A stretch of 64,000 nt of DNA, taken from assembly GCA_964630235.1 (NCBI GenBank), contig CAZVUO010000001.1, positions 917,446-981,445 of the forward strand. The letters are read 5' to 3'. The first letter of the stretch is position 1; each line of letters starts with the position of its first letter. Of the stretch, positions 2,080 through 42,181 are shown in pieces. Below the pieces are notes generated by a model, which was not told the DNA's origin, searched no databases, and saw only the letters and a program-made list of their open reading frames with translations. This DNA is from an uncultured bacterium (GTDB lineage Bacteria > Oederibacteriota > JAAXVQ01 > JAUVAV01). Both the position numbers and the translations under genes were made by a program.

Positions 2080-2268
2080 TTCATTCCTCTCCCCTGGGAG
2101 GCTGTGTCATAACGTTCGTTTTTGTGTTTGTTCGTCACCCCGGTGAAAACCGGGGTCCAGAAAAAGCTGTGAAATGAACACTTCCTGGATACCGGTTTCC
2201 GCCGGTATGACGGCAAAACCGCAAGCTTTTGAATTATGACACAGCCTCTGGCGAGAGAGGAATAAGGA
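2080..2268 (+). other. Long inverted repeat enclosing R copy A
   Basis: A perfect 15-bp inverted repeat GAGGCTGTGTCATAA (2098-2112) / TTATGACACAGCCTC (2234-2248) continues imperfectly outward for about 30 bp on each side, enclosing R copy A. Confidence 0.6.
2133..2213 (+). repeat. R-family structured repeat, copy A
   Basis: CGTCACCCCGG-loop-CCGGGGTCCAG ... CCTGGATACCGG-loop-CCGGTATGACG. The two arms are mutually complementary. Confidence 0.7.
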
Positions 2269-2351
2269 GAAGGGGGACATCCTGAACCTGCCCTCTCCCC
2301 TCGCCCCTCCCACCACAATACCCGGGGAGGGGGAACCATCAGGAGCGATCT

Positions 2352-3317
2352 GTGAAATTTACCTTCGTCATTGGTCATGCATTGTTGCTCGGCCTTTCCC
2401 TTGTTACCGGCTGCGGCCGCCCGGGCCGCCTGGAGACCAACGCCGATCCCACCAGCCTGGTCCTGGACGCGGGTTCGCGCACGCTCTTCGTGGCTTGCGA
2501 GGGCAGCCGGACCGTCGAGGCCTGGGACGTGTCACGGCGCACCAAGACCGCCGAGGCCGAGGCCGGCCGGGGACCCCTGCGTCTGGTCCTGGACCAGACC
2601 GGCAGCCAGCTTTACGTCCTGTGCGGCGGCGACCGCCTGGTGCTGGCCCTGCGCGTGCCGGATCTGAAGCCCCTCAAGCGGCTGCGCCTGTCCGACGCGC
2701 CCTCCGCGCTGTGGGAAGATGTTGCCGCAGGCGCGATGTGGGTGGCCTGCGCGGATTCGAACTTCCTGCGCCCCTATGCCGGGAGCAACCCCCTGCCGGC
2801 CATCGAGACCGGTCAGGAACCCGTGGACCTGGCGCGCGCCGGGGACAAGGACCTGCTGTGGGTGGCCAACCGCCAGGGTGGGGATGTGGCCGTGGTCAAG
2901 CTCAGCGAAGGCCAAGTGGTCAAGCACGTCGGGGTGTGGCCCAACCCGGTGCGCTTGCTGCTGCCGTCCGAGAGCAACCGTCTGCTCGTGCTGTGCCAGG
3001 GCCAGGACGCCCAGCCGCCGCAAAGCCGGGTGCAGATCGTGGACACGCTGTACCAGTCCGTCGGCCTGTCCTGGCCCGCGGGCGTGGATGCCCGCGATTT
3101 CGCTCTCAGCCCGGACGAACAGCGGCTGTACGTGCTCACGGCCGAGCGCTTGCTGGTGCTGTCGAGCGATATCGGCGTCCAGCTGGCCAGCCTTAAAGTG
3201 GGCAAGGAACCCCGGGCCCTGGCCCTCTCCTCGGACGAATCCACAGCTTTCATTTCCTGTCAAGACCAGCATGAGATATTGCTGGTCAAGCTCACCCCGG
3301 GCAAGTGGCTTCGGTAA
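2352..3317 (+). CDS. Lipoprotein with YVTN/YncE-like beta-propeller repeats
   Basis: Signal peptide plus lipobox (LSLVTGC). Repeated LYVL / LWVAN / LLVLCQG / LYVLTAE blades. Confidence 0.6.
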   Translation: MKFTFVIGHALLLGLSLVTGCGRPGRLETNADPTSLVLDAGSRTLFVACEGSRTVEAWDVSRRTKTAEAEAGRGPLRLVLDQTGSQLYVLCGGDRLVLALRVPDLKPLKRLRLSDAPSALWEDVAAGAMWVACADSNFLRPYAGSNPLPAIETGQEPVDLARAGDKDLLWVANRQGGDVAVVKLSEGQVVKHVGVWPNPVRLLLPSESNRLLVLCQGQDAQPPQSRVQIVDTLYQSVGLSWPAGVDARDFALSPDEQRLYVLTAERLLVLSSDIGVQLASLKVGKEPRALALSSDESTAFISCQDQHEILLVKLTPGKWLR

Positions 3318-3346
3318 ACGACGAGCAACCGTTCGTTTTCTATTAC

Positions 3347-3464
3347 CGTCACCCCGGCGTGGTTCTAGCCGGGGTCCAGGATCGAACGCCCCCTTGCGCC
3401 CCCTCTTTACCAAAGAGGGGGCGGGGGGAGTTGGATTCCGGCTCAATACATGCCGGAATGACGA
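3347..3464 (+). repeat. R-family structured repeat, copy B (with an internal CCCCCTCTTTaccAAAGAGGGGG hairpin module)
   Basis: Same arms as copy A. The internal module is shared with copy D. Confidence 0.7.
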
Positions 3465-3486
3465 ACCACGAAAGAGCCCTATTAAC

Positions 3487-4692
3487 TTGAAGAAGCTCAA
3501 GATCAAATGCCGTCCCGAGGATTTCGTGGTCGAGGAACTGGCGGACCTGCCGCTGTCCCAGCGCGGACGGTTCGCGGTCTACTGGCTGAGCAAACGCGGC
3601 TGGAACACGGTGGACGCCCTGCGGCGCATCGCCAAGACCTGCGGCGTGCCGTTCGAGCGTTTCGCGTACGGCGGCAAGAAGGACCGGCACGGCCTGACCG
3701 GCCAGTGGGTGACCGTGGAAGACGCCCGGCCGTGCCGCGTGGAGGGGCAGCCCTACCAGTTCGCGTTCCGCGGCTATTCGGACCAGCCCATGGGACCCCA
3801 GCGGATCCAGGCTAACCGCTTCGCGATCACGGTGCGGCACCTGACCAGCGGCGATATCCGGCGCGGCCTGGCCGAACTGGAGGCGGTCCGCGCCCACGGC
3901 TTCGTCAATTATTTCGACGATCAGCGCTTTGGCGGCTGGGACCGCGACCTGGGATTCCCGGCCGAGCGCCTGCTGCGGAACGAGTTTTCCGAGGCCCTGC
4001 AGATCTTCACGGCCGGCTGGTACCCCGAGGATACGAAGACCGCCAAGGAGCGCAAGCGAGGCCTGCGGGCCGCGTGGGGCGACTGGGCCGCGTGCCTGAA
4101 GCTGGCGCAGACCCGCTGGGAGCAGGAAACCTTCGGTTATTTGGCGCGCCGTCCGGACGACCTGCTGGCTGTGCTCCGGCGTCTGTCCCGGGAAACCGCC
4201 TCGCTCGCGGTGAGCGCCTTCCAGTCCTTTTTATGGAACGAGCTGGCCCGCCGTTTGCTGCTGGAAGCGGGCTGGGCCGAGCGCCGCTATACGGGCAAGG
4301 TGGGGGACTATGTTTTCTACGGCGCGCTGCCAGCCGAGACCAGCGCCAGCCTGCTGACCTTGGACGTGCCGCTCGCTGACAGTCAGGCGCGCATGCCAGG
4401 CGGGCAGCTCAGCCGCCTGTACGCGGACCTGCTGCGTGAGCGCGGGCTCGAACCCGGGGCCTTCGGCCGCTTTCCCCTCTCCCAGGCGTTCTTCGGCTCC
4501 GCGCCGAGGCCTCTGGCCGTCAGGCCGGAGGAGGTCTCCGCGGAAACGATCCCGGACGAGCTCTATCCCCGGCACAAAGCCCTGCGACTTGGATTCACCC
4601 TGGGACGCGGCAGTTACGCCACCATGCTCATCAAAAGGTTGTTCGCCGCGCCGATCCGCCAGCCTGGAACTCCCATTCAATCCCTCCGCTAA
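3487..4692 (+). CDS. truD: tRNA pseudouridine(13) synthase TruD
   Basis: PEDFVVEE near the N-terminus and FVNYFDDQRFG catalytic motif. The ORF-track frame 2719-4692 has a spurious N-terminal extension overlapping the lipoprotein gene. TTG at 3487 sits just before the conserved N-terminus, with an AAAGAG Shine-Dalgarno-like sequence 10 nt upstream. Confidence 0.8.
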   Translation: MKKLKIKCRPEDFVVEELADLPLSQRGRFAVYWLSKRGWNTVDALRRIAKTCGVPFERFAYGGKKDRHGLTGQWVTVEDARPCRVEGQPYQFAFRGYSDQPMGPQRIQANRFAITVRHLTSGDIRRGLAELEAVRAHGFVNYFDDQRFGGWDRDLGFPAERLLRNEFSEALQIFTAGWYPEDTKTAKERKRGLRAAWGDWAACLKLAQTRWEQETFGYLARRPDDLLAVLRRLSRETASLAVSAFQSFLWNELARRLLLEAGWAERRYTGKVGDYVFYGALPAETSASLLTLDVPLADSQARMPGGQLSRLYADLLRERGLEPGAFGRFPLSQAFFGSAPRPLAVRPEEVSAETIPDELYPRHKALRLGFTLGRGSYATMLIKRLFAAPIRQPGTPIQSLR

Positions 4693-4826
4693 GGGTGGGT
4701 ATCTGCCGGGAGACGGCCTCACCAGCCGCTCCGCTTTAAAAGTTATCGTTCGGATCCGGAGTGCCTCTCCGGATCCGAACGTAAGATATCGGAGGCCTTG
4801 AGGCGGCGACCGGCAGATACCCAACC
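4693..4826 (+). other. Nested palindromic element of about 134 nt downstream of truD
   Basis: Outer 13-bp stem GGGTATCTGCCGG / CCGGCAGATACCC. Inner perfect 14-bp stem GTTCGGATCCGGAG / CTCCGGATCCGAAC. Confidence 0.6.
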
Positions 4827-4934
4827 TCTTCTTCTCCCTACCCCTTGCCCAAGCCGGAGGTTTATGAGAAAATTGCCGGGTTTAAGATAACCTCGCGGCA
4901 CGATACGAGTGGTTGGTGGCGGAATAATAATTGT

Positions 4935-5041
4935 TCGTCACCCCGGCATGAATCCAGCCGGGGTCCACAAGCTGGTCTTGGGTAAAAGTGAAACACAGAA
5001 TTCAATTCCTGGATACCGGCGAAGACCATGCCGGTGTGACG
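4935..5041 (+). repeat. R-family structured repeat, copy C
   Basis: CGTCACCCCGGC...GCCGGGGTCCA...CCTGGATACCGGC...GCCGGTGTGACG. Confidence 0.7.
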
Positions 5042-5088: not shown

Positions 5089-6819
5089 ATGCGTTGGAGC
5101 CAGACCCTGATTGACACCCTGAAGGAAGTGCCGGCCGAGGCCGAGGTGAAGAGCCACCAGCTCATGCTGCGGGCCGGATTCATCAAGAAGCTGGCCGCCG
5201 GGCTCTACTCCTACCTGCCGCTCGGCTGGCGGACCATCCGCAAGATCGAGCAGATCGTGCGCGAGGAGATGGACGCGGCCGGCGCGGTCGAAGTGATGCT
5301 GCCCATCCTCTCGCCCGCGGAGCTGTGGCAGGAGACCGGCCGCTGGTCCCAGTACGGCGCGGAACTGTTCCGCGTGCAGGACCGGCATGAGCGCCAGTTC
5401 GCGCTCGGCCCCACGCACGAGGAAGTGATCACGGACCTGGTCCGCCGGACCGTGAAGTCCTACCGCCAGCTGCCCCTCAACTGCTACCAGATCCATACCA
5501 AGTTCCGGGACGAGATCCGCCCGCGCTTCGGCGTGATGCGGGCGCGGGAGTTCCTCATGAAGGACGCCTATTCCTTCGATCGCGACGAGGCCGGGGCCGA
5601 GGCGGCGTACGCGAAGATGTACGAGACCTACCACCGCATCTTCCGGCGCTGCGGTCTGCGCTTCAAGGCCGTGGAGGCCGATCCCGGAGCGATCGGCGGC
5701 TCCTTTTCCTCCGAGTTCATGGTGCTGGCCGAGACCGGCGAAGAGGCCATCGCGACCTGCGGACAGTGCGCCTACGCGGCCAATGTGGAGAAGGCCCAGG
5801 GCGAGCTCCCCGACCCCTCGGCCCCCGAAGCGCCGCAGGAGCGCAAGCTGGTGTCCACGCCCGGCCAGCACACCGTGGAGGAGGTCGCGGCCTTCCTGCG
5901 GGTGCCGGTGACGCGCCTGGCCAAGACCCTGCTCTACGCGGCGGACGGGAAGCTGGTCGCGGTGGTCATTCGCGGCGACCGGGATGTGAACGAGATCAAG
6001 CTGCGCAACGCGCTGGCCGCCCAAACGCTGGCGCTGGCCTCGCCGGAGCAGATCCGGCAGGCCACGGGCGCGCCCGTGGGATTCGCCGGGCCCTTCGGGC
6101 TCAACGGCGTGGCCGAGATCATCCAGGACGACTCGCTGGAGGGCGCCGCCAATCTCGTGACCGGCGGCAACCAGGCGGACACGCACGCCACGGGCGTCAC
6201 GCCCGGCCGCGACTACCAGCCCAGCCGGGTGCTCGACCTGCGCGTGGCGCGCGCGGGCGACCACTGCCCCCGGTGCGGCGGGGAACTCGGCATCGAGCGC
6301 GGCATCGAGGTCGGCCACGTGTTCAAGCTGGGGCTGAAGTACTCGCAGGCCATGCAGGCCTCGTTCCTGGACGAGGCGGGGCAGGAACGCCTGTGCGTCA
6401 TGGGCTGCTACGGCATCGGCGTGTCCCGCATCGCGGCCGCGGCCATCGAGCAGAACCACGATGAGCAGGGCATGATCTGGCCCATGCCGCTGGCCCCGGT
6501 CCAGGTGGTGCTGCTGCCCATCGCGCCCAAGGACCCGAAGGCCGGCGCCATGGCCGAGGAGGTTTACGCGGAGCTGACGGCCGCGGGCGTGGAAGCGCTG
6601 CTCGACGACCGCGACGAGCGGGCCGGGGTCAAGTTCAAGGACGCGGACCTGCTCGGCATCCCGCTTAGGCTCACCTTCGGCAAGCACGCGGCCGAGGGCC
6701 TGGTCGAGCTGAAGCGCCGGGACACCGGCGAAACGGCGCTGGTGCCCCGCGCTGAAGTTGCGGCCCGGGTCAAGACCCTGATCGCGGAACTTCTGCAGGC
6801 CGTCCGTCCCGCCGCATGA
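5089..6819 (+). CDS. proS: Proline--tRNA ligase ProS (bacterial type with editing domain)
   Basis: N-terminus MRWSQTLIDTLKE...HQLMLRAGFI, class II motifs, about 576 aa. GAGGA RBS 11 nt upstream of the ATG. Confidence 0.92.
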   Translation: MRWSQTLIDTLKEVPAEAEVKSHQLMLRAGFIKKLAAGLYSYLPLGWRTIRKIEQIVREEMDAAGAVEVMLPILSPAELWQETGRWSQYGAELFRVQDRHERQFALGPTHEEVITDLVRRTVKSYRQLPLNCYQIHTKFRDEIRPRFGVMRAREFLMKDAYSFDRDEAGAEAAYAKMYETYHRIFRRCGLRFKAVEADPGAIGGSFSSEFMVLAETGEEAIATCGQCAYAANVEKAQGELPDPSAPEAPQERKLVSTPGQHTVEEVAAFLRVPVTRLAKTLLYAADGKLVAVVIRGDRDVNEIKLRNALAAQTLALASPEQIRQATGAPVGFAGPFGLNGVAEIIQDDSLEGAANLVTGGNQADTHATGVTPGRDYQPSRVLDLRVARAGDHCPRCGGELGIERGIEVGHVFKLGLKYSQAMQASFLDEAGQERLCVMGCYGIGVSRIAAAAIEQNHDEQGMIWPMPLAPVQVVLLPIAPKDPKAGAMAEEVYAELTAAGVEALLDDRDERAGVKFKDADLLGIPLRLTFGKHAAEGLVELKRRDTGETALVPRAEVAARVKTLIAELLQAVRPAA

Positions 6820-7982
6820 ACATCGGGCTGGCGACGGACACGTACCTGCCCCGCATCAACGGCGTGGTCCAGTCCGTCGCGACCTTCGCCCGGGAGTTCC
6901 GGCGCCTGGGGCACCGCGTGGTGATCTTCGCGCCCGCGTTCCCCGGGAACGAGCAGGAGGAAACGGACGTCTGGCGCTTTCCCAGCCGGCGCCCCCGCAA
7001 CAATCCCGAAGACCGGTTGACCAATCCCCTGCATCCGAGCTCGCTGCGCCTGATGCGCCGGCTGTCCGGCCTGGAACTGGACGTGGTCCATACCCATACG
7101 CCGTTTTCCCTGGGAGGCATGCTGTTGCGCTGGGCGCGCCGGCACCGCGTGCCCACGGTGCATACCTACCATACCTATTTTGCGCGCTATGTCGAACATT
7201 ACCTGCGCCCCGTGCCGCACCGGACCGGCCAGTGGCTGGTGCGGCGCGTCTCCAGATCCTTCTGCAACCGGCACGATCTGGTGGTGACCCCCTCCCGGGC
7301 CATGGCCAGGATCCTGCGCCGCTACCAGGTTACCGTTCCGATCCGGGTCATTCCCACGGGCGTGGACCTGGAGGAGTTCAAGCGCGGCCGGCGTGCCCAG
7401 GGGCGCGCGGCCTTCAACCTGGGGCCGGACGACCAGGTCCTGCTCAGCCTGGGGCGCATCTCCGGCGAGAAGAACCTGGAACTGCTGCTGGACGCGCTCG
7501 TGCGCCTGGCGCCGGCCCATCCACGCCTGCGCCTGGTGCTGGCCGGGTCCGGGCCGGACCTGGACAGCATGCGGCAGGAGACCAGGCGGCGCGGACTGGC
7601 GGACCGCGTGGTCTTCGCGGGTTACGTGCGGGGCCAGGGCCGGCTCGACCTCTACGCCGCGGCGGACGTGTTCGTGCTGTCGTCCAAGACCGAAACCCAG
7701 GGGCTGGTGCTGAACGAAGCCATGGCCGCGGGCAAGCCCTGCGTGGCCGTGGGCGCCATGGGTGCCCGCGAAGCGCTGAAGCACGGCGGCGGCGCGCTGG
7801 TTCCGAACCAGCCCGCGGCGTTCGCCGCGGCCGTGGAGCGTCTGTTGGCCGATCCCGCCTGGTACGCGGCCAAACAGGCCGAGGCCCACGCTCAGGTCGC
7901 GCGCTATTCCGCCGCGGCCAAAGCGGAAGAACTGCTGGCCAGCTACCAGGAGCTGGCGGCGAAGAAGAGATCAAAGGCCTGA
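6816..7982 (+). CDS. GT4 glycosyltransferase, alMGS-like (putative monoglycosyl-diacylglycerol synthase)
   Basis: N-terminus MNIGLATDTYLPRINGV, typical of GT4 glycolipid synthases. ATGA overlap with the proS stop. Confidence 0.75.
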   Translation: MNIGLATDTYLPRINGVVQSVATFAREFRRLGHRVVIFAPAFPGNEQEETDVWRFPSRRPRNNPEDRLTNPLHPSSLRLMRRLSGLELDVVHTHTPFSLGGMLLRWARRHRVPTVHTYHTYFARYVEHYLRPVPHRTGQWLVRRVSRSFCNRHDLVVTPSRAMARILRRYQVTVPIRVIPTGVDLEEFKRGRRAQGRAAFNLGPDDQVLLSLGRISGEKNLELLLDALVRLAPAHPRLRLVLAGSGPDLDSMRQETRRRGLADRVVFAGYVRGQGRLDLYAAADVFVLSSKTETQGLVLNEAMAAGKPCVAVGAMGAREALKHGGGALVPNQPAAFAAAVERLLADPAWYAAKQAEAHAQVARYSAAAKAEELLASYQELAAKKRSKA

Positions 7983-8007
7983 AAAGCCAAAAGGAGCCTT
8001 GCACATC

Positions 8008-9174
8008 ATGCACATCGGAATGGTCACGGACACGTTTCTGCCGCGCATCAACGGCGTTACCAAATCCACCCTGACCTTCGCCGAGCATTTCCGGCGGCTG
8101 GGCCACCGCGTGACTATTTTCGCCCCTCAGTATCCCAAGGCCCAGGACGAGAGCGCGGACGTCTGGCGCTTTCCCTCGTACTTTCTTTTCTTCAGTCCCG
8201 AGGACCGGCTGAGCAATCCGCTGGGTCTGGCCGCGCGCCGCTTATTTAAAAAACTTCCGGCGCTCAAGCTCGATATCCTGCACACGCAAACGCCCTTTGC
8301 CCTGGGCATGGCCATGGCCCGGTGGGCGAAGCGCCGGGGGGTGCCGTCCTTGCACACCTACCATACCCTGTTTGAAGCCTACATGCCCCACTACTTCGGC
8401 CTGCTCCCCCGGTCCCTGGACAAACCCATCGTGGCCTCCTTTTCGCGCTGGTTTTGCAATCTGCACGACCAGGTGGTGGTGCCTTCGAGCGCCATCGCCG
8501 ACGTGCTCGCCGGTTACCGCCTCGCCGTGCCCGTCAAGGTCCTGCCCACGGGCACGGACCTGTCGCCCTTCCAGAACCTGGACGGCAACCGCATGCGCGA
8601 AAAGCTGGGCTTTGGCCCGGAGGACAAGCTGCTGCTTTCCATGGGCCGGGTGGCGCACGAGAAGAACATCCCGTTTTTGTTCGACGTGCTGGAGCGCCTG
8701 AAATCCGAACAGCCGCGGGCCAGGCTGGTGGTGGCCGGGCAGGGTCCGGCGCTGGAATCCGTGAAGGCCGAAAGCGAACGGCGGAAGCTGGGCGAGCGCG
8801 TGATCTTTCTCGGCCTGCTGAACCGCCGGGACTGGGCGGACCTGTACGCCGCGGCGGACCTGCACCTGCTGGCTTCGGTCACCGAAACCCAGGGCCTGGT
8901 GCTGACCGAGTCCATGGCCGCGGGCACGCCCTGCGTGGCCGTGGCCGCCATGGGCGTGCGGGACGTTATGCAGGGCGGCGGCGGATTGGCCGTATCGCTG
9001 AACGTCGAGGAGTTCAGCCAGGCGGTCAACCGTTTGCTGGGAGATAAAACGCTCTACGCGGACAAGGTCGCGGAGTGCGGCCGCCAGGCCGTCGCGTGGT
9101 CCGCGGAAACCAAGGCCAAGGAAATGCTGGACAACTACGCCCAGCTGATCGCCGCGAAAGGAAATGTCCGCTGA
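8008..9174 (+). CDS. GT4 glycosyltransferase, paralog of the upstream gene (putative second glycolipid glycosyltransferase)
   Basis: MHIGMVTDTFLPRINGV aligns with the upstream paralog. The ATG at 8008 was chosen by paralog alignment. The ORF track instead starts at TTG 7999. Confidence 0.75.
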   Translation: MHIGMVTDTFLPRINGVTKSTLTFAEHFRRLGHRVTIFAPQYPKAQDESADVWRFPSYFLFFSPEDRLSNPLGLAARRLFKKLPALKLDILHTQTPFALGMAMARWAKRRGVPSLHTYHTLFEAYMPHYFGLLPRSLDKPIVASFSRWFCNLHDQVVVPSSAIADVLAGYRLAVPVKVLPTGTDLSPFQNLDGNRMREKLGFGPEDKLLLSMGRVAHEKNIPFLFDVLERLKSEQPRARLVVAGQGPALESVKAESERRKLGERVIFLGLLNRRDWADLYAAADLHLLASVTETQGLVLTESMAAGTPCVAVAAMGVRDVMQGGGGLAVSLNVEEFSQAVNRLLGDKTLYADKVAECGRQAVAWSAETKAKEMLDNYAQLIAAKGNVR

Positions 9175-9697: not shown

Positions 9698-11092
9698 ATG
9701 CTGCGAACAGGCTGGGTTCTCGCGCTGGTCTTGGCTTATCCTGCGGTAGGGATGGCGGCCTTGACCTACCAGGACCATCCCCGCGCTGACAGCGACCTGG
9801 TCGAACGCGCGGTGTTTTCCGGCGCGCAGGAGGTCGCCAGGCTCGCGCTGGACGGGAACGGGAACGTGATCCGCTCCACGGGAACGGTACCGGATGGCGT
9901 AGCCGAATACTACGATAAAGACCAACGCCTGCGCGGCCGCCTCACGTTCCAGGGCGGGGTGCTGTCAGGACCTGCCGCGACCTACTATCCGGATGGAACC
10001 CTATACCTGGAAGCGAATTACACCGGGAACCGGCTGCACGGCGCCTACCGGCTATACGACGCGCAGGGCAGGTTGAAGACCGATTACCGCTTCCAGGACG
10101 GACGGCTGGACGGGGAACAGAAAGTCTACTACGACAGCGGCCAGCTCATGAGCCGGTCCCGCTACAGTTACGGCGTCAAGGACGGTCCGCTCCTCATGTA
10201 CCACGAGAACGGACGCGTCGCGTATAAAAGCGACTATCACCAGGGACACCAGCTGCGACGTGCGGAGTTCGACGAGGACGGCCGTGAGATCGGGACCCGG
10301 CCCGGTCCCTCCGCCGGCCCTCCGGACGCGGAAGAACCGGCTGTCGAAACCGGCGCCGGCGCGGCCGTGGAACCCGAGGCGCAGCTGACTGAGACCAGGG
10401 CAGAAACCCCCGATGGGGGAGGCGGGCACCGAGCCTCAGACCGCTGGCAGGGCAGGATCGTGATCTTCGGCAGCGTGCCTTCGGCGGCTTTTTCCATGGC
10501 CCGAGTCAATGCCTACTTGAACGACTGGGATGAATTCCTGAACTATTACGGCGTGCGTTCCAGCCTGGGTCTGGCGGCGCAGTCTACCTTTACCGGCGGG
10601 GCGGGGTACTGGGTCAGCGATGCGGTCTTCGCGGGGTTTGAAGGGGAAGTACTGAGCTGTGAAACCTCATCTGGCGGCGATCAGCTGGGGGTGGATTTCC
10701 GCGCGCGGGCTCTGGAACTGGGGGCGTTTGTCCAGGTCGGCACCCATGTGCCGCCGCATGTGTTTATGGCCGGCTTGGGAGGCTACAGTGTCACTCTGAT
10801 CGATGCCTGGGAGTACCTGCATCTCAACGCGGTCGGTTATAGCGACGCCTTCCGGGTTTTTCACGGTTCGACCCTGGGTTTAAAATTCATGGCTGGGTAT
10901 CAGGTCGAGTTGGCGCCATTTTTTGGACTGGGAGTGGATCTGGGCTACCGCCTGGCCGCGATCAACGACGTGACCTTTACGGCGGATAATTACCAGGAGG
11001 AGCCGTTTATCTACGCCGGCGATCCCATCAACCTCGATTTCAGCGGCTTCTACGTCCGCGCGGGTCTCCGCCTGTATTTTCAGACCCGGTGA
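9698..11092 (+). CDS. Secreted protein: N-terminal MORN/YwqK-type repeats fused to a C-terminal outer-membrane beta-barrel-like domain
   Basis: Signal peptide. Repeats of YYxxGxLxxExxYxxGxxxG, a Pro/Glu/Ala-rich linker, then about 220 aa with an alternating hydrophobic pattern ending LRLYFQTR. AGGAGGG RBS. Confidence 0.6.
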   Translation: MLRTGWVLALVLAYPAVGMAALTYQDHPRADSDLVERAVFSGAQEVARLALDGNGNVIRSTGTVPDGVAEYYDKDQRLRGRLTFQGGVLSGPAATYYPDGTLYLEANYTGNRLHGAYRLYDAQGRLKTDYRFQDGRLDGEQKVYYDSGQLMSRSRYSYGVKDGPLLMYHENGRVAYKSDYHQGHQLRRAEFDEDGREIGTRPGPSAGPPDAEEPAVETGAGAAVEPEAQLTETRAETPDGGGGHRASDRWQGRIVIFGSVPSAAFSMARVNAYLNDWDEFLNYYGVRSSLGLAAQSTFTGGAGYWVSDAVFAGFEGEVLSCETSSGGDQLGVDFRARALELGAFVQVGTHVPPHVFMAGLGGYSVTLIDAWEYLHLNAVGYSDAFRVFHGSTLGLKFMAGYQVELAPFFGLGVDLGYRLAAINDVTFTADNYQEEPFIYAGDPINLDFSGFYVRAGLRLYFQTR

Positions 11093-11094
11093 CC

Positions 11095-11240
11095 TCCATC
11101 CCCTCCGCGGGGGGTGAATGCGGAATGGTTGCTCCGTGGATGTCGCCAAGAGGGGGTAGCGAGGGGTGCGGTTGGTATCCCGGTGGGAGCCCTTCGGTCC
11201 CCAAAGGGACTTCTTTCAGTCGCCGGGGGGCTCCATCGCT
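11095..11240 (+). repeat. F-family repeat, copy 1 (in the dnaE/polC leader)
   Basis: CCCCTCCGCGGGGGGTGAATGCGGAAT..GGATGTCGCCAAGAGGGGGTAGCGAGGGGTG...cUUCGg hairpin...GGGGGGCTCCAT. Confidence 0.7.
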
Positions 11241-11320
11241 TCCGCAGGACATTCCGGGTCCTCCAGGTAAAATATTCAAAAAAAGATTTTCTGTTCATTT
11301 GTGGATTTTTTGCTACAATG

Positions 11321-33136: not shown

Positions 33137-33176
33137 GCAAGTAACGGTGACAAAGTCCACCTCGAGGTAAGCACGC

Positions 33177-33467
33177 GTGAACAAGAACACCTTGGCCAAA
33201 CAGCTGTCCCGACAGTTCGGGTTTACCCAGCGGGAATCCCAGATCCTGGTGGACCACATCCTGAACGCTTTAGCCGCTGAATTGGTGAAAGGCCGGCGCG
33301 CGGAGATCCGGGGCCTGGGCACGTTCGGCACCCGCAAGCGCAAAGCCAGCGTGGGGCGCGTGGTCAGGACGGGAAAATCCGTGACCGTGCCGGCCCTGCG
33401 GCGCGTTTTTTTCCGGCCGGGCCGCGAGTTGAAGGAAATCTCCCGCGAGGCGGAAAAAAACGCGTGA
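33177..33467 (+). CDS. hup: HU/IHF family DNA-binding protein
   Basis: 96 aa. RGLGTFGTRKRKA...GKSVTVPALRRVFF beta-arm. GTG start with a GAGGT RBS. Confidence 0.85.
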   Translation: MNKNTLAKQLSRQFGFTQRESQILVDHILNALAAELVKGRRAEIRGLGTFGTRKRKASVGRVVRTGKSVTVPALRRVFFRPGRELKEISREAEKNA

Positions 33468-35704
33468 AGCCCGGAACGGTATTTACCGCGGAACTGAACC
33501 CGCCGCAGCTGGAAGCGGTCACGCACGGCGACGGGCCGCTCCTGGTGCTGGCCGGCGCCGGTTCGGGCAAGACCCGCGTGATCACCTGCCGGATCGCCCA
33601 CCTCATCGGGCAGACCCGCGTTCCTCCCGGCGCCATCCTGGCTGTCACCTTCACCAACAAAGCCGCGGGTGAGATGCGCGAACGCATCGAACGCCTGCTG
33701 GGGAAAGAGACCGCGTCCAAGCTGTGGATCGGCACTTTTCACGCCCTGTGCCTGCGGATCCTCAAACGCGAACTGCCCGAGACGTTCTCGATCTACGACG
33801 ACGAGGAGAGCAAGCGCCTGCTCAAGGAATGCCTGCGCGAGCTCAACCTGGACCAGCAGACCGTTAAGCTGGAGCAGGCGGCTTTCCGGATCGAAAGCGC
33901 CAAACACGAGCTGATCGCCCCGGCGGAATTCGCGAGCCTGGCCCTTGATTTCATCAGCCGCCAGGTCGCCAAGGTGTACGAACTCTACCAGCGCAAGCTG
34001 GCCCGCAACCGCGCCCTGGATTTCGGCGACCTTATTTTGCGCGCCGTACAGCTTTTTCAGGAACAGCCGGACCTGCTGGCCAAGTACCGCGAACGGATCC
34101 AGCACCTCTTGGTGGACGAATACCAGGACATCAATCACGCCCAGTACCGCTGGATCCGCCTGCTGGCCGGAGAGCAGGGCAACCTGACCGTGGTGGGCGA
34201 CGACGACCAGAGCATCTACCAGTTCCGCGGGGCGGACCTGCGCAACATCCTGGAATTCGAACGGGATTTTCCCTCGGCCAAGGTGATCAAACTGGAGCAG
34301 AATTACCGCTCCACCCAGAACATCCTGGCCGCGGCCGGCGCCGTGGTGGCGAATAACCGCGGGCGCAAGGAAAAAACCCTGTGGACCGAGAACCCCGAAG
34401 GCGAAACGCTGACCTATTTCCGGGGGCAGGACGAGGCGGACGAGGCGGCCTTCGTGGTGCGATCGTTCGTCGCGGAAACCGTCCGGGGCCGCCGGCTTTC
34501 GGAACTGGCCGTGCTCTACCGCACCAACGCCCAGTCGCGCCCCCTGGAAGACGCGCTGCGGCGCGAGCGCATGCCGTACCGGCTCATCGGCGGCATGCGG
34601 TTCTACGACCGCATGGAGATCAAGGACGCGCTGGCTTATCTCAAGATACTGGTCAACCCGGCGGACGAAATTTCCCTGGAGCGGGTCATCAACCTGCCTT
34701 CACGCGGCCTGGGCGAGGGCACGCTCGCCAAGCTGCGCGCGGCCGCTTCGCAGCGGGGGCTGACCCTGCTCGAAACCATGGCCTTGGAGGATATCCCGGC
34801 GCTGGGGCTGAACGACCGCGCCACGGCCGCGGTCCGGGCCTTTGTCCGCCTGCAGCAGGATATGCAGGCGCGGCGCGATCAGCAGCCCCTGCCGCTCTTG
34901 CTCGCCGACCTCTTGCGCGAAAGCGGCTACCTGGCCATGTGGGAAAAAGACGAAGAGAACGGCACCGCGCGCATCGAGAACCTCAACGAACTGGTCGTGG
35001 CCGCGGAGGAGTTCAGCCGCACCGGCGAGGGCACGCTGGAGGGCTTTTTGGACCAGGTTGCCCTGGTCTCGAGCCTGGACGAGCAGGATGACAGCAGCGA
35101 ACAGGTGACCCTGATGACCCTGCACGCGGCCAAAGGCCTGGAATTCCCGGTGGTCTGCCTGGTGGGGATGGAAGAAGGCTTGTTCCCGCATGCCAACGCC
35201 CTGCAGGAAGCTTCCGGGCTGGAGGAAGAGCGCCGGTTGTGCTACGTGGGGTTGACCCGCGCGCGCGAACGGCTGATCTTGACCGGCGCGGCCACCCGCA
35301 GTTCATTCGGCAACCGGATCTACAATTCCGAGTCCCGGTTTTTGCACGAAATCCCGGGGCGGTTGTTCACGGGGCACAAACCCCTGGCCCACCTCAAGGC
35401 GGAGCAGACCGAAACGGCCCGCGGCCTGTGGCGCGGCCGGCCCGCGGCCGGCGACGGGGAGATCACCCGCGAACCCCTGGCCGAAGGCACGGAACCGGAC
35501 GAGGACGCGTTCCCCGGCCTGAGGATCGGCCAGCGCGTGCGGCACGCCCGCTACGGCACGGGCACGATCGTGGGCAGGCACGGCGAAGGCCAGGACGCCA
35601 AGCTGGAAGTGGCTTTTACCCACTATGGCCGTAAAAAACTCATGGCGCGGTACGCCGCCCTGCAGCCCGCGGGCGCGGCGGAGCCGGCCAGGCGGAGGCC
35701 GTGA
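33464..35704 (+). CDS. pcrA: ATP-dependent DNA helicase PcrA/UvrD
   Basis: Walker A AGAGSGKT, UvrD motifs and a C-terminal Tudor-like tail. GTGA overlap with the hup stop. Confidence 0.9.
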   Translation: MKPGTVFTAELNPPQLEAVTHGDGPLLVLAGAGSGKTRVITCRIAHLIGQTRVPPGAILAVTFTNKAAGEMRERIERLLGKETASKLWIGTFHALCLRILKRELPETFSIYDDEESKRLLKECLRELNLDQQTVKLEQAAFRIESAKHELIAPAEFASLALDFISRQVAKVYELYQRKLARNRALDFGDLILRAVQLFQEQPDLLAKYRERIQHLLVDEYQDINHAQYRWIRLLAGEQGNLTVVGDDDQSIYQFRGADLRNILEFERDFPSAKVIKLEQNYRSTQNILAAAGAVVANNRGRKEKTLWTENPEGETLTYFRGQDEADEAAFVVRSFVAETVRGRRLSELAVLYRTNAQSRPLEDALRRERMPYRLIGGMRFYDRMEIKDALAYLKILVNPADEISLERVINLPSRGLGEGTLAKLRAAASQRGLTLLETMALEDIPALGLNDRATAAVRAFVRLQQDMQARRDQQPLPLLLADLLRESGYLAMWEKDEENGTARIENLNELVVAAEEFSRTGEGTLEGFLDQVALVSSLDEQDDSSEQVTLMTLHAAKGLEFPVVCLVGMEEGLFPHANALQEASGLEEERRLCYVGLTRARERLILTGAATRSSFGNRIYNSESRFLHEIPGRLFTGHKPLAHLKAEQTETARGLWRGRPAAGDGEITREPLAEGTEPDEDAFPGLRIGQRVRHARYGTGTIVGRHGEGQDAKLEVAFTHYGRKKLMARYAALQPAGAAEPARRRP

Positions 35705-36198
35705 TGATCTCCCCCGCGGTGGATTACACCGCCCTGCGAAAACAGTCGGTCCGGGCGATGAAGCTCAAGCTGGAGCCCGGCAAGGAGCTGCGCATCGATC
35801 TGCCCAGCACCTTGCCCAAACTGGCGCAGGTCCGGCAGGCCATCCGCCGGTTCACCAAGACCTGCAAGCTCCCGGCGCTGATCGTGGACAAGATCGAGCT
35901 GGCCGTGGACGAGGCGGTGGCGAACGCGGTCGAGCACGCCTACCCCGAGCGCGAGGACGGCCTGGTGCAGGTCCGGGCTTGGCGGGAACGGCGCCGCTTC
36001 TCCGTGGCCATCCGCGATTACGGGAAAGGGTACGACCCCAAGCCCGTCTCCTTCTCCGCCATCCGCAAGGTCATGCGCAACCATCTGCGGCGCGGCATGG
36101 GCCGCTACCTCATGCGCCAGTGCATGGACATCGTGAAATACGTTTCGGTCCCCCAGCAGTACAACGAGACCTTCATGGTCAAACGGTTGCTGCGGTAA
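35704..36198 (+). CDS. Anti-sigma regulatory factor-like HATPase (RsbW/SpoIIAB family Ser kinase)
   Basis: ELAVDEAVANAVEHAY N-box and a DYGKGYD G-box-like segment. TGATG overlap with pcrA. Confidence 0.6.
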   Translation: MISPAVDYTALRKQSVRAMKLKLEPGKELRIDLPSTLPKLAQVRQAIRRFTKTCKLPALIVDKIELAVDEAVANAVEHAYPEREDGLVQVRAWRERRRFSVAIRDYGKGYDPKPVSFSAIRKVMRNHLRRGMGRYLMRQCMDIVKYVSVPQQYNETFMVKRLLR

Positions 36199-36277
36199 GC
36201 AGCATCCTTCTCCTTACCACCCTCTCCCGCACCCTCAATGTCTGTGTCATAATTTTCTTTAGAGACTTTTTATCTAT

Positions 36278-36395
36278 TGTCACCCCGGCATGCCTATAGC
36301 CGGGGTCCAGATGCGAACTCCCCCTTTTCCCCCTCTTTACCAAAGAGGGGGCAGGGGGGAGTTGGATTCCGGCTAAAACCATGCCGGAATGACGA
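36278..36395 (+). repeat. R-family structured repeat, copy D (with the hairpin module)
   Basis: Near-identical to copy B over the internal module. Confidence 0.7.
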
Positions 36396-36456: not shown

Positions 36457-38178
36457 TTATTTCCGCTTGAACAGCTTGCGCAGTTCGGTAACGGACCGTG
36501 TGTTGAGCACGTCCGCCGGCTCCAGCCACCCGCGCCGCGCCTGATTGATCCCGTAGCGCAGGGTGCGCAGGCCGACCGGGCTGTGCGCGTCCGAGGAAAC
36601 AGCCACCCGCACGCCTGCTTCCTTGGCCTGGCGGCAGGCCGTGTCCGTGGCGTCCAGACGCTCGGGATGGGAGTTGAGCTCGAGAAAACAGCCGCGTTCC
36701 TTCGCGCCGGCGATCACGCGTTCCAGCTCCAGCGGGTAGGGGGGGCGGGAGTTCAGCAGGCGGCCGGTGGGGTGGCCGAGAATGCTGAAATAGGGATTGT
36801 CCATGGCGCGCAGAATGCGCTCGGTTTGCTTGCCCGCGGGCAGGTTAAATTTGTAGTGGATGGACCCCACGGCGTAATCCAGGCGCGCCAGCACCTCATC
36901 CGGCATATCCAGCCGGCCGTCCTCCAAAATGTCGGCTTCCAGTCCTTTTAGCAGCGTGAAATTCTTAAGCCGCGCGTTGGCCGCGTCAATGGCGTCGAGC
37001 TGTTTGAGCAGGCGTTTGGCGTCCAGGCCGTGGGCCACGGTCACATGCTGGGAATGGTCGGTAATGCCCAGGTACGCATAACCGAGGGCGCGGGCGGCCT
37101 CGGCCATTTCCAGCAGGCCGGCTGTGCCGTCCGATTCCTCGGTATGGCAGTGGAGGTCTCCGCGCAGGTCCGGCAGGCTTACCAGGCGCGGCAGGAGCCC
37201 CTGGGCCGCCCGCTCCAGTTCGTCCCCCGCTTCCCGCAGTTCGGGCTCGATGTAAGCCAGGCCGAGGCGGCGGTAGATTTCCTCCTCGGTTTTGCCTGCC
37301 ACGGACCGTGTTCCCTTGAACAGCCCATACTCATTGAGTTTGTAGCGCTTTTTTTGCGCCAGCTTGCGCACCGCGATGTTATGCGCCTGAGAGCCGGTGA
37401 AATAGTGCAGGGCCGCGCCGAAACTCTCCTGCGGCACGGCGCGCACGTCCACCTGCAGGTCCGAGCGCAAAACGACCGTGGCGCGGGTCGGACCCAAGGC
37501 CTGCACGCGCGCGATGTCCGGGTAGCGGCTGAAAAATTCCAGGGTCTTGTCAGGCAGGCGGCTGGCGACCAGGATATCCACATCGCCGATGGTTTCCTTG
37601 CGGCGGCGGAAGCTGCCGGCCGCGGCCGTGGACTCCACGCCCGGGGCGGCCCGCAAATAGACCAGGAGCGCTTCCACGGCCGGCTCGGCGCTGGCCCACA
37701 GCGTGCGCTCGGGATTGGCCATGCGGTGCGCGGCGCCGGACAGGATCTGCTCCTCCAGCTTGGGGCCGAAGCCGGGGAGCGCCCGCACCTTGCCGGCTTG
37801 GGCCGCGCGTTTAAGGTCGTCCAGCGTTCGCGGACGCAGGCTCGCGGCCAGCTGTCTGACCCGCTTGGGTCCCAGCCCCGGCAGTTTCAGCATCGCGAGC
37901 TGCACAGGCGGGATCTTGGCCTCCAGCTCCGAAAGCATTGTCAGCGCACCGGTGGCCAGGAGTTCCTGGATCTTTTCGGCCAGGTCCGGGCCGATGCCCG
38001 GCAGACCGGTCAGGCCGTTCTTGCGGGCGGCGAGTTCGGACAGGCTGCGGGGCAGGTTGGCAATGGTTTGGGCCGCAGTATGATACGCGCGGATGCGGAA
38101 GGGATTGGCGCCTTCCAGCTCCAGCAATACGGCCACCCGCTCGAAGCGTTCCGCGATTTCCTGGTTTGTGAGGGGCAT
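36457..38178 (-). CDS. polX: DNA polymerase X family protein with a C-terminal PHP (3'-5' exonuclease/phosphoesterase) domain
   Basis: HhH motifs (GLPGIGPDLAEKI) and a Pol beta-like nucleotidyltransferase (GSFRRRKETIGDVDIL). PHP with HCHTEESDG. Confidence 0.88.
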   Translation of the reverse strand: MPLTNQEIAERFERVAVLLELEGANPFRIRAYHTAAQTIANLPRSLSELAARKNGLTGLPGIGPDLAEKIQELLATGALTMLSELEAKIPPVQLAMLKLPGLGPKRVRQLAASLRPRTLDDLKRAAQAGKVRALPGFGPKLEEQILSGAAHRMANPERTLWASAEPAVEALLVYLRAAPGVESTAAAGSFRRRKETIGDVDILVASRLPDKTLEFFSRYPDIARVQALGPTRATVVLRSDLQVDVRAVPQESFGAALHYFTGSQAHNIAVRKLAQKKRYKLNEYGLFKGTRSVAGKTEEEIYRRLGLAYIEPELREAGDELERAAQGLLPRLVSLPDLRGDLHCHTEESDGTAGLLEMAEAARALGYAYLGITDHSQHVTVAHGLDAKRLLKQLDAIDAANARLKNFTLLKGLEADILEDGRLDMPDEVLARLDYAVGSIHYKFNLPAGKQTERILRAMDNPYFSILGHPTGRLLNSRPPYPLELERVIAGAKERGCFLELNSHPERLDATDTACRQAKEAGVRVAVSSDAHSPVGLRTLRYGINQARRGWLEPADVLNTRSVTELRKLFKRK

Positions 38179-38304: not shown

Positions 38305-38435
38305 CCCCTCCCCTCCGCAGGGCACCCCGAGCTTGCTCGGGGGTGAATGCGGAATCGTTGCTCCGGGGATGTCGCCAAGCAGGGGTAGCGAGGATTGAAG
38401 TGGGTACCCCGGGCCCTTCGGCCGGGGGGCTCCCT
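38305..38435 (+). repeat. F-family repeat, copy 3 (upstream of rtcB)
   Basis: Same core GGGTGAATGCGGAATCGTTGCTCCGGGGATGTCGCCAAG, ending GGGGGGCTCCC. Confidence 0.7.
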
Positions 38436-38506
38436 CGACAGGCTCGGGGACCTAGAAAGATGTTTCCCGCATTGAACCTCTGCGGTCTTGGCGTTATACT
38501 CCTGCC

Positions 38507-39983: not shown

Positions 39984-40019
39984 CCCCTCTTTGCTAAAGA
40001 GGGGCAGGGGGAGATTACT
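39984..40019 (+). repeat. Hairpin repeat module (CCCCTCTTTgctaAAGAGGGGCAGGGGGAGATTACT)
   Basis: Perfect 9-bp stem. The same module is found at 59878-59913 (reverse) and, diverged, at 40053-40088, 59806-59840 and inside R copies B and D. Confidence 0.6.
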
Positions 40020-40121
40020 TATCATCCGTCCAGTCGGCAGTTGAGGTTTATGAGTAATCCCCCTTCGCCCCCTTTAGAAAAGGGGGCAGTCAACAGCAAG
40101 TGGGGAATAAAAGGTATACAC

Positions 40122-40535
40122 ATGATTCCTTTTGAGATCCTAGAGCATACGGCGGACGTGGGGCTTAGGGTCCAGGGCCGGACGCTGGAGGAACTGTTCG
40201 AGAACGCGGCCCAGGGCCTGTACGCGCTGGCCTTGGCGGCGCCTCCGGCCGGGGCGGTGACCGAGAAGGTCACTCTGCACCTGGCCGCTGACGGCCCGGA
40301 ATCCCTGCTGGTCGCGTTCCTGGAGGAACTGGTATTCCGCCTCTACAGCCGGTGCCAGATGGCGATCAGCGCGCGCCTGTCCTTTCCCACGCCCAATCGC
40401 TTGAGTGCCGAGGCGGCGTTCGTTCCCGTCGCGGCCGAATCCTATGCGGTGGAAGTGAAAAGCCCCACGTACCACCGGCTGAAGATCGAGCAGGGGCCTG
40501 AAGCCTGGCTCGCGGAGGTCTATTTTGACCTGTGA
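40122..40535 (+). CDS. Archease (RtcB activator)
   Basis: MIPFEILEHTADVGLRV N-terminus. Confidence 0.85.
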   Translation: MIPFEILEHTADVGLRVQGRTLEELFENAAQGLYALALAAPPAGAVTEKVTLHLAADGPESLLVAFLEELVFRLYSRCQMAISARLSFPTPNRLSAEAAFVPVAAESYAVEVKSPTYHRLKIEQGPEAWLAEVYFDL

Positions 40536-40556
40536 GGGCGGGGAGAACTGAACGTC

Positions 40557-40991
40557 GTGGCCATACGCAAGCTCAAGCGGAAAAAGGGAAGTCTTTATCC
40601 CCACCGATATTTTCTGGGCACGGGGTTCGGGACCGAGGACCTGGACAATAAACCCGTGGAGGATAAATACCGAGCCCAGGTGCCGAGATCAGAGGCCCTG
40701 ATCAAGATCGGGACCGTGGAAAAACTTCCACACGGCACCCTGAAGTGCTTTCTGCGACGGGGGATCGCGGTCGTCGGCTTATACCAGGCCGGGAAACCCG
40801 TGGGGTACGAGCTGTTGTATAAACCGACACCCGAGGAACGCCAGCGCGGCATCCCGGAGTGGAAGTTCGACCTCCAGAACACCTCGGTCTTGGGCACGGA
40901 TTGGGATTACCAGGACATCACCACATTCTTTTGGACCGTGCGCGGTTTGCGCAAGAACGGCAAGGCAGAAAAGACCATCAATCAAAGCTAG
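40557..40991 (+). CDS. Hypothetical protein
   Basis: 144-aa ORF at the edge of the low-GC island with no recognisable motif. Putative GTG start. Confidence 0.4.
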   Translation: MAIRKLKRKKGSLYPHRYFLGTGFGTEDLDNKPVEDKYRAQVPRSEALIKIGTVEKLPHGTLKCFLRRGIAVVGLYQAGKPVGYELLYKPTPEERQRGIPEWKFDLQNTSVLGTDWDYQDITTFFWTVRGLRKNGKAEKTINQS

Positions 40992-41116
40992 CGGACCGGA
41001 CAGGGCCGAGGTTCTGCGCGGCATGGCGAAGGGTCCGTGGCAGGTGTGGTGATTGACCAGCGGGATTTCGGTTTCGTGTAGACAAACGCTTTTAATGCTG
41101 TTGCGGAGGAAAAATC

Positions 41117-41908
41117 GTGAAAATATTGAAATATCTCATAAAGCATATTTTACGCATGGCAGGAGTCGGAACGTATAGCATAAAAAATGTTCATCGCCAT
41201 TATATGTTTGAAGTCCTCGAGCATCTCAAAAAGATGTCTTTTTACCCCAGCACGGTTATTGATGTGGGCGTAGCGTACGGGACAAATGATCTCTATGAGA
41301 AATTTCCGCGAGCCCATCATTTATTAGTTGAACCACTCGAAGAGTACAAAAGCGTTTTGGATAAAATAGCCAAGAAATATAACGCGGAATATGAATTGGC
41401 GGCCGCGGGGGCCAAGGAAGGAGTTCTCGAGATCAACGTTCATCCGGATCTGTCCGGATCATCATTATTAAAAGAGGTCGAAGACAGTGACGTCAATGGC
41501 GTTCCCCGCAAAGTCAAAATAATAACGCTTGATCATTTGTGCCTTCGAAAAAAAACGACCGGCCCTTATTTAATCAAGATTGATGCGCAAGGAGCTGAGC
41601 TTGAGGTGCTGGAAGGCGCGCAAAACATATTAAAAGAAACCGAAGCGATTGTTTTGGAGGTGTCTTTTTTTCAGTTTTACCAGAATGGCCCGCTGATGTA
41701 TGACGTGGTCAAGTGGATGAAGGATCATGGGTTTGCTGCCTACGATTTGTATGGAGGTCAAAACCGTCCCCTCGACGGCGCCTTGGCTCAAATTGACATG
41801 GTTTTTGTTAAAGAACATGGAATTTTCAGGAAAAATCATTATTACGCCACCCGCGAACAACGAAAGAAGCATACGAAGTTGGTGAGTACAGAAAATCCGA
41901 AAAACTAA
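41117..41908 (+). CDS. FkbM family SAM-dependent methyltransferase
   Basis: VIDVGVAYGTND SAM motif and IDAQGAELEVLEGA. About 41% GC against 65% in the surrounding sequence. GTG start with a GGAGGA RBS. Confidence 0.75.
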   Translation: MKILKYLIKHILRMAGVGTYSIKNVHRHYMFEVLEHLKKMSFYPSTVIDVGVAYGTNDLYEKFPRAHHLLVEPLEEYKSVLDKIAKKYNAEYELAAAGAKEGVLEINVHPDLSGSSLLKEVEDSDVNGVPRKVKIITLDHLCLRKKTTGPYLIKIDAQGAELEVLEGAQNILKETEAIVLEVSFFQFYQNGPLMYDVVKWMKDHGFAAYDLYGGQNRPLDGALAQIDMVFVKEHGIFRKNHYYATREQRKKHTKLVSTENPKN

Positions 41909-42064
41909 TATAGGTCTTGAATTAATCGGTGCGATTTATTTTAGCGGAACAGAAAAGTGGTTTCGATTTGCTGCGCGGGTTTCATCCCCGGTTGTACAGT
42001 GATGGTATTCACTTGACAGTGTCCGCGAATGGCCTATCATTGTAAGGAGTAGGTTTTTACTTCT

Positions 42065-42181
42065 CGTCACCCCGGCCCAGTCCTGTCTGATCTGGGCCAG
42101 GGCGAAAGCCGGGGTCCAGTATCAGGCATTAATCAAATCAAATTCCCTGGATTCCGGCTAACTACATGCCGGAAAGACGAG
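42065..42181 (+). repeat. R-family structured repeat, copy E
   Basis: CGTCACCCCGGC...GCCGGGGTCCAG...CCTGGATTCCGGC...GCCGGAAAGACG. Confidence 0.7.

Follow-up and report, generated by a model that had tools for sequence, protein, structure and literature searches.

Are the palindromic repeats that lie between genes of an uncultured bacterium, on a 64-kb stretch of contig CAZVUO010000001.1 (hereafter the window), structured RNA elements carried within messenger RNAs, or are they sites that act as DNA? A preliminary description of this stretch had listed five copies of a two-armed repeat, and had given first place to the RNA interpretation. In this report, we examined these copies by computation in the window, in the corresponding regions of relatives, and in genomes and metagenomes in which similar arms occur. 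Coordinates are those of the window unless another locus is named; we use 'arm' for one hairpin and 'doublet' for two inward-facing arms.

Our main finding is that every copy consists of a single oriented hairpin motif present twice, the two arms facing inward. The five copies probably belong to a known motif family rather than to a new class of RNA: they are SRM/NTS-type hairpin repeats, after the Neisseria Transformation Sequence (NTS) and its broader form, the Ssn-related motif (SRM) (Chenal et al., Nat Commun 2025, PMC11893778). The favoured explanation is that they act as DNA, not as RNA, each being a site for an Ssn-type nuclease with the layout of an ssnA cassette that lacks its gene. 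We put the probability of the family assignment and of this explanation, taken jointly, at roughly 0.7.

Each copy is a doublet of one oriented hairpin

All five copies proved real and lie on the + strand, with limits moved by only a few nucleotides from those first given (2133-2212, 3347-3463, 4936-5041, 36278-36394 and 42065-42179). Their anatomy was also well described: the aligned copies share a left half with a 7-bp stem, 5'-CGTCA-[CCCCGGC loop GCCGGGG]-TCCAG, followed by a variable core of 24 to 51 nt, and a right half, (C/T)TGGA-[TWCCGGC loop GCCGGWW]-TGACG-3'. Left and right arms are reverse complements of each other except at the two outermost stem pairs; each copy is therefore an inward-facing doublet, built from one arm of the generalised form CGTCA-[YNCCGGC loop GCCGGNR]-TCCAG. 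The elements measure 80 to 118 bp, with terminal inverted arms of about 30 nt. Deviations from the shared plan are TGTCA at the start of copy 4, TCCAC in copy 3, TTGGA in copies 2 and 4, AGACG at the end of copy 5, and a loop of 33 nt in the left arm of copy 5.

The two-arm pattern has eight matches in the window against 0.55 expected by chance, and a structure-aware scan of the window returned ten arms and not one solitary arm. The preliminary description had proposed a covariance model and a check for compensatory changes. An arm covariance model, used without filters on all 64 kb, recovered exactly these ten arms (27 to 39 bits), the next match scoring 18.3 bits. The model was trained on nine of the ten window arms; the one left out, that with the 33-nt loop, still reached 28.9 bits. 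These ten arms per 64 kb are all intergenic.

The arms correspond to a known nuclease motif

The NTS reads CGTCATTCCCGCGMAVGCGGGAATCYRG, and the search sequence published for the SRM is HGTCWYN(0-2)YYVSBRHN(0-5)WNVSBRGN(0-2)RNCYNB (PMC11893778). Its protein partner SsnA, a single-domain GIY-YIG protein of 94 aa, binds the motif and cleaves a few nucleotides before it; it acts on single-stranded DNA only and on the forward strand only, with no action on double-stranded DNA or RNA, and binding and cutting restricted to single-stranded DNA have been published for four Ssn homologues (PMC11893778). The three bases before the palindrome affect cleavage, the C just after it affects binding, and, of the genomes that have more than 200 SRMs, 81% possess a gene for an Ssn homologue (PMC11893778).

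In the window, the published search sequence has six matches, versus 0.63 expected from 100 dinucleotide-preserving shuffles, and five of the six are arms of copies 1 to 5. Each of the ten arms, without exception, has GTC before the palindrome and C right behind it.

Doublets are widespread, and some arms adjoin GIY-YIG genes

One genome per species was scanned with the left-arm pattern GTCACCCCGG-N(3-33)-CCGGGGTCCA, which gave at least 120 loci. Hosts among the loci listed include sphingomonads, Agrobacterium, Azospirillum, Devosia, many 'delta proteobacteria', Elusimicrobia, Verrucomicrobia, Gemmatimonadales, Methylomirabilis and candidate-phyla-radiation genomes. Most listed loci have a partner arm, CTGGAT(T/G/C)CCGG...CCGG(A/C/G)ATGACG, a few tens of bases downstream, and 79 inward-facing pairs from many phyla are found among the 120 genome loci listed; the inward-facing, often heterotypic doublet is the common genomic form.

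A scan of metagenome contigs for the right-arm variant of the window, GGATTCCGGCT-N5-CATGCCGGAA, gave 120 loci, none of them from the organism of the window (best nucleotide identity about 70%). In five of these 120 (loci L154, L156, L182, L222 and L231), a gene for a GIY-YIG protein of 90 to 93 aa directly adjoins the right-arm variant, and two more arm loci with a GIY-YIG gene came from the genome scan. The order forward arm, ssnA, reverse arm occurs at L182, which has the loop variant of the window, and at L060, which has a different one; at both, the gene fills the place that the short core has in the window doublets. Residues Y6, Y17 and E64, whose mutation abolished the nuclease activity of Neisseria meningitidis SsnA (PMC11893778), are kept in the homologues that could be aligned over their full length and in the genes of L060 and L055 (the genes of L182 and L222, which read as split hits, were left out of this alignment). 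NCBIfam has no specific model for Ssn homologues, and a sequence search of the PDB returned UPF0213 GIY-YIG proteins only.

The orientation of the doublets relative to flanking genes was recorded for 60 heterotypic doublets drawn from all loci, the strands of the flanking genes being approximate since they were taken from the longest open reading frames (ORFs): 20 doublets are co-oriented, 16 anti-oriented, 12 convergent and 12 divergent. The uniform orientation seen in the window is therefore not a property of the family. The copies had been described as sharing the orientation of their flanking genes; a single strand for all five stands, but copy 4 sits between convergent genes and matches only one neighbour.

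The arm hairpin covaries, whereas the proposed junction does not

A three-way-junction-like fold had been proposed for the repeat, from the complementarity of its CGTCA/TGACG and TCCAG/CTGGA segments. As the right arm is an inverted left arm, this complementarity is automatic, and since the outer and inner 'helices' that it would form are invariant, they carry no information. Whether computed as RNA or as DNA, the predicted minimum-energy fold of the whole doublet is instead a single long hairpin between the arms, with the CC/AA positions unpaired. A three- or four-way junction was rejected as the minimum-energy structure; the junction form proposed earlier is 3 to 7 kcal/mol worse in copies 1 to 4. 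The predicted doublet folds are strong (z-scores -4.7 to -9), and single arms are predicted to fold into 8-bp hairpins with 9-nt loops. The differences between arms (CC:GG versus TT:AA) keep the pairing within each arm and break the pairing from arm to arm; in copy 1, the right-arm stem likewise has TA:TA where the left arm has CC:GG, a compensated change.

Partner arms (n = 103) were collected by the TGGA...TGAC frame alone, pairing being no criterion of selection. Over all 103, uncurated, stem positions are 86-94% Watson-Crick, versus 28-89% after shuffling. Nine partners (chance matches or arms with indels) were then dropped, and the remaining 94 were joined with nine window arms in an alignment called A5, in which 96.5% of cells are paired and 124 cells are changed on both sides. 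The covariation score of A5 is 0.406 versus 0.101, none of 500 shuffles reaches 0.406, and the second stem position uses all four Watson-Crick pairs. G-U pairs occupy 7 of 823 cells. They are no commoner than plain mismatches, and this near-pure Watson-Crick covariation fits a DNA hairpin better than an RNA helix.

The doublets are missing from the corresponding spacers of relatives

The nearest ProS is that of a 'candidate division FCPU426 bacterium' (locus L244; 89% identity), which is syntenic with the window from rpsB to dnaE. No arm was found in the 21.7 kb of this locus, in which only a decayed half-arm is left, upstream of truD. In L244 and in two more distant relatives (L245 and L247), the ispG and lipoprotein genes overlap or lie 10 nt apart, versus 304 bp in the window, and the whole 304-bp spacer, with copy 1 and an outer repeat that surrounds it, is absent. 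For copy 3, the proS leader of L244 is too diverged to define exact insertion ends. Since a syntenic relative has none of them in the corresponding spacers, the copies are not conserved parts of those transcripts; the doublets were likely gained in this lineage and are likely mobile, in the manner of REPINs or of miniature inverted-repeat transposable elements (MITEs). No direct target-site duplication was seen on reading the flanks of the five copies; the 5' flanks are rich in T, the 3' flanks are rich in A, and together they weakly extend the palindrome.

Contigs assembled from short reads of this organism, in more than 13 samples, terminate in or next to arms, and one such contig is present in 13 samples. 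The exact TruD and PolX proteins are encoded only on Logan contigs, which are short and break at the repeats, those with PolX ending about 85 nt past the stop codon, a point that maps inside the right arm of copy 4. For the HATPase protein, no record was found. Such contig ends at arms suggest many arm copies across the source genome.

A separate observation concerns L245 and another contig, L246, which are identical over 16,818 nt and diverge at 16819, right after ...GCCGGAATC, the 3' edge of an SRM arm. After the split, one contig has a partner arm and a BrnA antitoxin gene, and the other has unrelated genes; either strains have recombined at the arm, or the assembly is chimeric at this point.

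Features of the window and gene context

The arms and their associated features are listed in Table 1.

Table 1. Arms, cores and outer inverted repeats of the five doublets (window coordinates; bits, score with the arm covariance model)
Feature	Position	Strand	Description
Copy 1, left arm	2133..2160	+	CGTCA-CCCCGG-TGAAAA-CCGGGG-TCCAG; matches SRM search sequence; 32.7 bits
Copy 1, right arm	2185..2212	-	SRM-type, stem TACCGG/CCGGTA; 32.0 bits
Outer inverted repeat around copy 1	2083..2263 (2083-2112 / 2234-2263)	.	30 nt, 83% complementary; CTGTGTCATAA family
Copy 2, left arm	3347..3379	+	forward SRM-type, 9-nt loop; matches search sequence; 36.3 bits
Copy 2, variable core	3380..3430	+	G+C-rich hairpin at 3397-3423
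Copy 2, right arm	3431..3463	-	CGTCA-TTCCGGC-ATGTATTGA-GCCGGAA-TCCAA; 39.3 bits
Copy 3, left arm	4936..4968	+	33.4 bits
Copy 3, right arm	5009..5041	-	stem CACCGG/CCGGTA, one mismatch; matches search sequence; 26.9 bits
Copy 4, left arm	36278..36310	+	begins TGTCA; matches search sequence; 35.5 bits
Copy 4, core	36311..36361	+	hairpin at 36321-36359
Copy 4, right arm	36362..36394	-	TTCCGGC-ATGGTTTTA-GCCGGAA; 38.9 bits
Copy 5, left arm	42065..42119	+	33-nt structured insertion in loop; 28.9 bits
Copy 5, right arm	42147..42179	-	CGTCT-TTCCGGC-ATGTAGTTA-GCCGGAA-TCCAG; matches search sequence; 30.8 bits
Outer inverted repeat around copy 5	41993-42016 / 42221-42244

The core of copy 2 is common to copy 4 (repeat family D5, 78% identity). 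Copies 1 and 5 lie within larger inverted repeats, which suggests either that they were inserted into palindromes already present or that the elements are composite. The CTGTGTCATAA motif of the outer repeat of copy 1 also stands before copy 4 (36242-36252).

Pfam assignments confirmed that copies 1 to 3 occupy the consecutive spacers of the series ispG (974-2047), a beta-propeller lipoprotein gene (2352-3317), truD (3487-4692) and proS (5089-6819). Transcription through these three copies is likely but incidental. A conserved GTTTATGAGAAAAT box, probably a promoter or leader element of proS, is found upstream of this gene in the window (4862-4880), in L244 (around 9925-9945) and in L245 (around 9945-9960), and copy 3 is placed between the box and the ribosome-binding site and start of proS. 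The truD-proS spacer also contains, just past the truD stop (4692-4827), nested inverted repeats (4692-4709 / 4810-4827) with a perfect 15-bp stem at 4747-4781, which resemble a terminator on the - strand alone and have no relation to the SRM arms. The convergent genes around copy 4 lie at 35701-36198 (+) and 36457-38178 (-), the latter encoding PolX. Copy 5 lies within a stretch of lower GC content (40000-44000; 0.54 versus about 0.66), which also has a gene for an FkbM-type methyltransferase (41117-41908) and small membrane-like ORFs; this stretch may be an acquired island.

As had been stated before, the repeats match no catalogued RNA: Rfam at gathering thresholds gave no match anywhere in the window. 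A terminator or promoter role was also considered and rejected, as the consensus scan does not flag the doublets. A tRNA scan of the window returned none.

Other repeats are present in the window. A second intergenic family of about 170 nt, with the core GGGGGTGAATGCGGAATCGTTGCTCCGGGGATGTCGCCAAG.GGGGTAGCGAGGGGTGAAGTTGGTA, occurs at 11096-11270, 33005-33180 and 38320-38470, each time on the + strand and upstream of a gene (dnaE, the gene at 33464, and rtcB, respectively); it has no Rfam match, and Logan contigs end inside it. At 49097-49272, a perfect tandem array of a 35-nt unit, GCGACCGGAGGAAGTCCCATAGCTATCCGGTCGGG, in about five copies, stands between GTCATTGCGAGC and GCGAAGCAATC; it resembles another GTCA-hairpin-TC motif with the array inside its loop, and a related unit is also present in the lipoprotein-truD spacer of L244. 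Finally, 6816-7982 and 7999-9174 are tandem paralogous genes for GT4 glycosyltransferases, 74-79% identical over segments of 160 to 169 nt, and they are tandem in relatives too.

Discussion

How could such doublets act as DNA? Whenever one of the strands is exposed as single-stranded DNA, in the course of replication, repair or uptake, its CGTCA...TCCAG arm would fold into an 8-bp hairpin, and a cognate Ssn (a single-domain GIY-YIG protein of about 90-95 aa) would bind this hairpin and nick the single-stranded DNA a few nucleotides 5' of the motif. With the arms facing inward, there is one forward site per strand, and the two predicted cuts would lie on either side of the doublet. The doublet is best viewed as a non-autonomous miniature of the forward-SRM / ssnA / reverse-SRM cassette, with the 24- to 51-nt core replacing the gene, much as a MITE relates to an insertion sequence (IS) or a REPIN to a RAYT, and such doublets would have spread into the intergenic DNA of this lineage. 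We infer that the source genome encodes a cognate Ssn (a cd10448-type single-domain GIY-YIG protein) and that this Ssn acts on the five copies. The agent that mobilises the doublets would be Ssn, or something else.

Several points weigh against this explanation. We know of no mechanism by which a GIY-YIG nickase would copy doublets to new sites. All five window copies have one orientation, for which the chance is about 1/16, and a model based on single-stranded DNA does not explain it. Only five of the ten arms pass the published SRM search sequence; head, tail and kind of stem are the same in the other five. Neither ssnA nor another GIY-YIG gene was found in the window by motif regular expression, tblastn or a profile hidden Markov model with filters off (best E = 9.3), and none was seen in about 80 kb of the relatives' loci; from the 81% figure quoted above, about one in five SRM-rich genomes has no Ssn homologue (PMC11893778). 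Recognition of the 9-nt-loop variant by Ssn would be an extrapolation.

A bolder claim is that the doublet is the unit of transposition in a class of mobile elements not yet proven, with forward-SRM / ssnA / reverse-SRM as its autonomous form. By cutting opposite strands, in each case just outside an arm, the GIY-YIG nickase would excise or copy the unit, and gene-less miniatures such as the five copies would be excised or copied likewise. The compensated difference between CC:GG and TT:AA arms would, on this account, prevent arm-to-arm pairing and leave two separate enzyme sites, and the clean divergence of L245 and L246 at the 3' edge of an arm might be the footprint of such events. We regard this claim as tentative, with odds clearly below even.

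It is improbable, in our opinion, that the doublet is a cis-acting structured RNA of ispG-lipoprotein-truD-proS messenger RNAs, whether a stabiliser, an RNase site or a protein-binding site. The succession of copies 1 to 3 in co-oriented spacers, the place of copy 3 between a promoter-like box and the start of proS, the strong predicted folds and the covariation of the arm helix would all suit an RNA, but other results do not. SsnA, the protein partner of the motif, has no interaction with RNA (PMC11893778), orientation is random across genomes, and the copies are absent from the orthologous spacers of all three relatives. G-U pairs are as rare as mismatches, the junction helices follow automatically from the inverted duplication, and the differences between arms preserve pairing within an arm at the expense of pairing between arms; moreover, there is no Rfam match and the doublets are not terminator-like. 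An RNA role might still arise as a by-product of co-transcription, but nothing supports it specifically. The idea of a functional element borne by messenger RNA, to which the preliminary description gave the lead, is thus not supported, whereas the alternatives that it offered, a REP/BIME-like repeat, a protein binding site or a MITE, come close. It had also held that random orientation together with a lack of covariation would speak for a simple MITE and against a functional RNA; over 60 doublets from many genomes the orientation is indeed random, but the arms do covary (A5 score 0.406).

We consider it very unlikely that the doublet is a repetitive extragenic palindrome (REP) or REPIN element mobilised by a RAYT, in which case the enzyme would be an IS200/IS605-like Y1 HUH transposase and not Ssn. 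REPINs are defined by their architecture, short hairpins arranged as inverted doublets between genes, and the absence of target-site duplications also agrees with this origin. Classical REPs, however, have a GTAG-type head, whereas the arms studied here conserve CGTCA, and REP/RAYT pairs are species-specific, whereas the arm motif is conserved across phyla. Wherever a gene was found beside these arms, seven genes at six loci, it encoded a GIY-YIG protein, and this is the only recurrent arm-flanked gene found, in loci that were not searched for RAYT genes. A parallel with REP/BIME elements has been drawn for the SRM itself (PMC11893778). Least credible of all is an origin as a classical MITE, derived by deletion from a DDE-transposase IS and having the arms as its terminal inverted repeats: small size, terminal inverted arms of about 30 nt and presence here versus absence at the same sites in relatives would fit, but direct target-site duplications are lacking at copies whose flanks weakly continue the palindrome (T-rich 5', A-rich 3'), and the arms covary as hairpins in their own right, a property that terminal inverted repeats do not require. 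Among about 1.6 Mb of loci with these arms, in which no dedicated search for DDE transposases was made, no transposase with ends of this kind came to light, and the only recurrent neighbour identified is ssnA.

If the favoured explanation, an inward-facing SRM doublet acting as an Ssn-type site, is correct, several consequences follow. For annotation, the copies would not be a new RNA class and should be labelled SRM-type repeats. The family of Ssn sites would extend to an uncultured candidate phylum (FCPU426), and would include a 9-nt-loop variant of the SRM that tolerates a 33-nt loop insertion. The doublet layout, combined with absence in a syntenic relative, offers material for testing whether Ssn mobilises its own sites, a question left open by the study that defined the motif (PMC11893778). 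The repeats also fragment short-read assemblies of this organism.

Comparison with known systems

Among known small repeats, the Correia element of Neisseria and the Rickettsia palindromic elements resemble the doublets as small palindromic insertions that vary between relatives and can be co-transcribed with their neighbours. They differ in that the doublets are without target-site duplications and have arms that are covarying hairpins with a known single-stranded DNA nuclease as partner; no DDE-transposase parent turned up for them, none having been specifically searched for. REP, BIME and REPIN elements are closer: they too are inverted hairpin doublets, intergenic and without target-site duplications, and, as is proposed for the doublets, they are non-autonomous copies of a unit whose hairpins flank a single-copy nuclease gene and are recognised as hairpins of single-stranded DNA. 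Their partner is a Y1 HUH transposase rather than the GIY-YIG protein of the SRM, their head is different, and the conservation across phyla is that of the SRM.

The dRS3 repeats of Neisseria, which bound mosaic elements called NIMEs, are likewise short palindromes (of the type ATTCCC-N8-GGGAAT), paired around short variable cores and adjoining variable regions. dRS3 is defined without oriented flanks and is also a target of phage integration in Neisseria, whereas no phage link was seen for the window copies. The NTS contains the dRS3 sequence (PMC11893778).

The closest likeness is to the NTS and SRM themselves. The window arms differ from the NTS in their stem (CCCCGGC or TWCCGGC, not ATTCCCGCG) and in their loop, which is of 9 nt with the consensus ATG..T.TA, or of 33 nt in one arm; the copies also differ in being all inward-facing heterotypic doublets, with no single motif, and in their host, of candidate division FCPU426. 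What they have in common is the CGTCA head, a Y-rich, CCGG-type palindrome, the C and YRG of the tail, an intergenic distribution in several copies (ten arms within 64 kb), and the bases on which cutting and binding depend. Elsewhere, ssnA homologues are flanked by this arm variant, and the wide phyletic spread is shared too, including the sphingomonads and Devosia named in PMC11893778.

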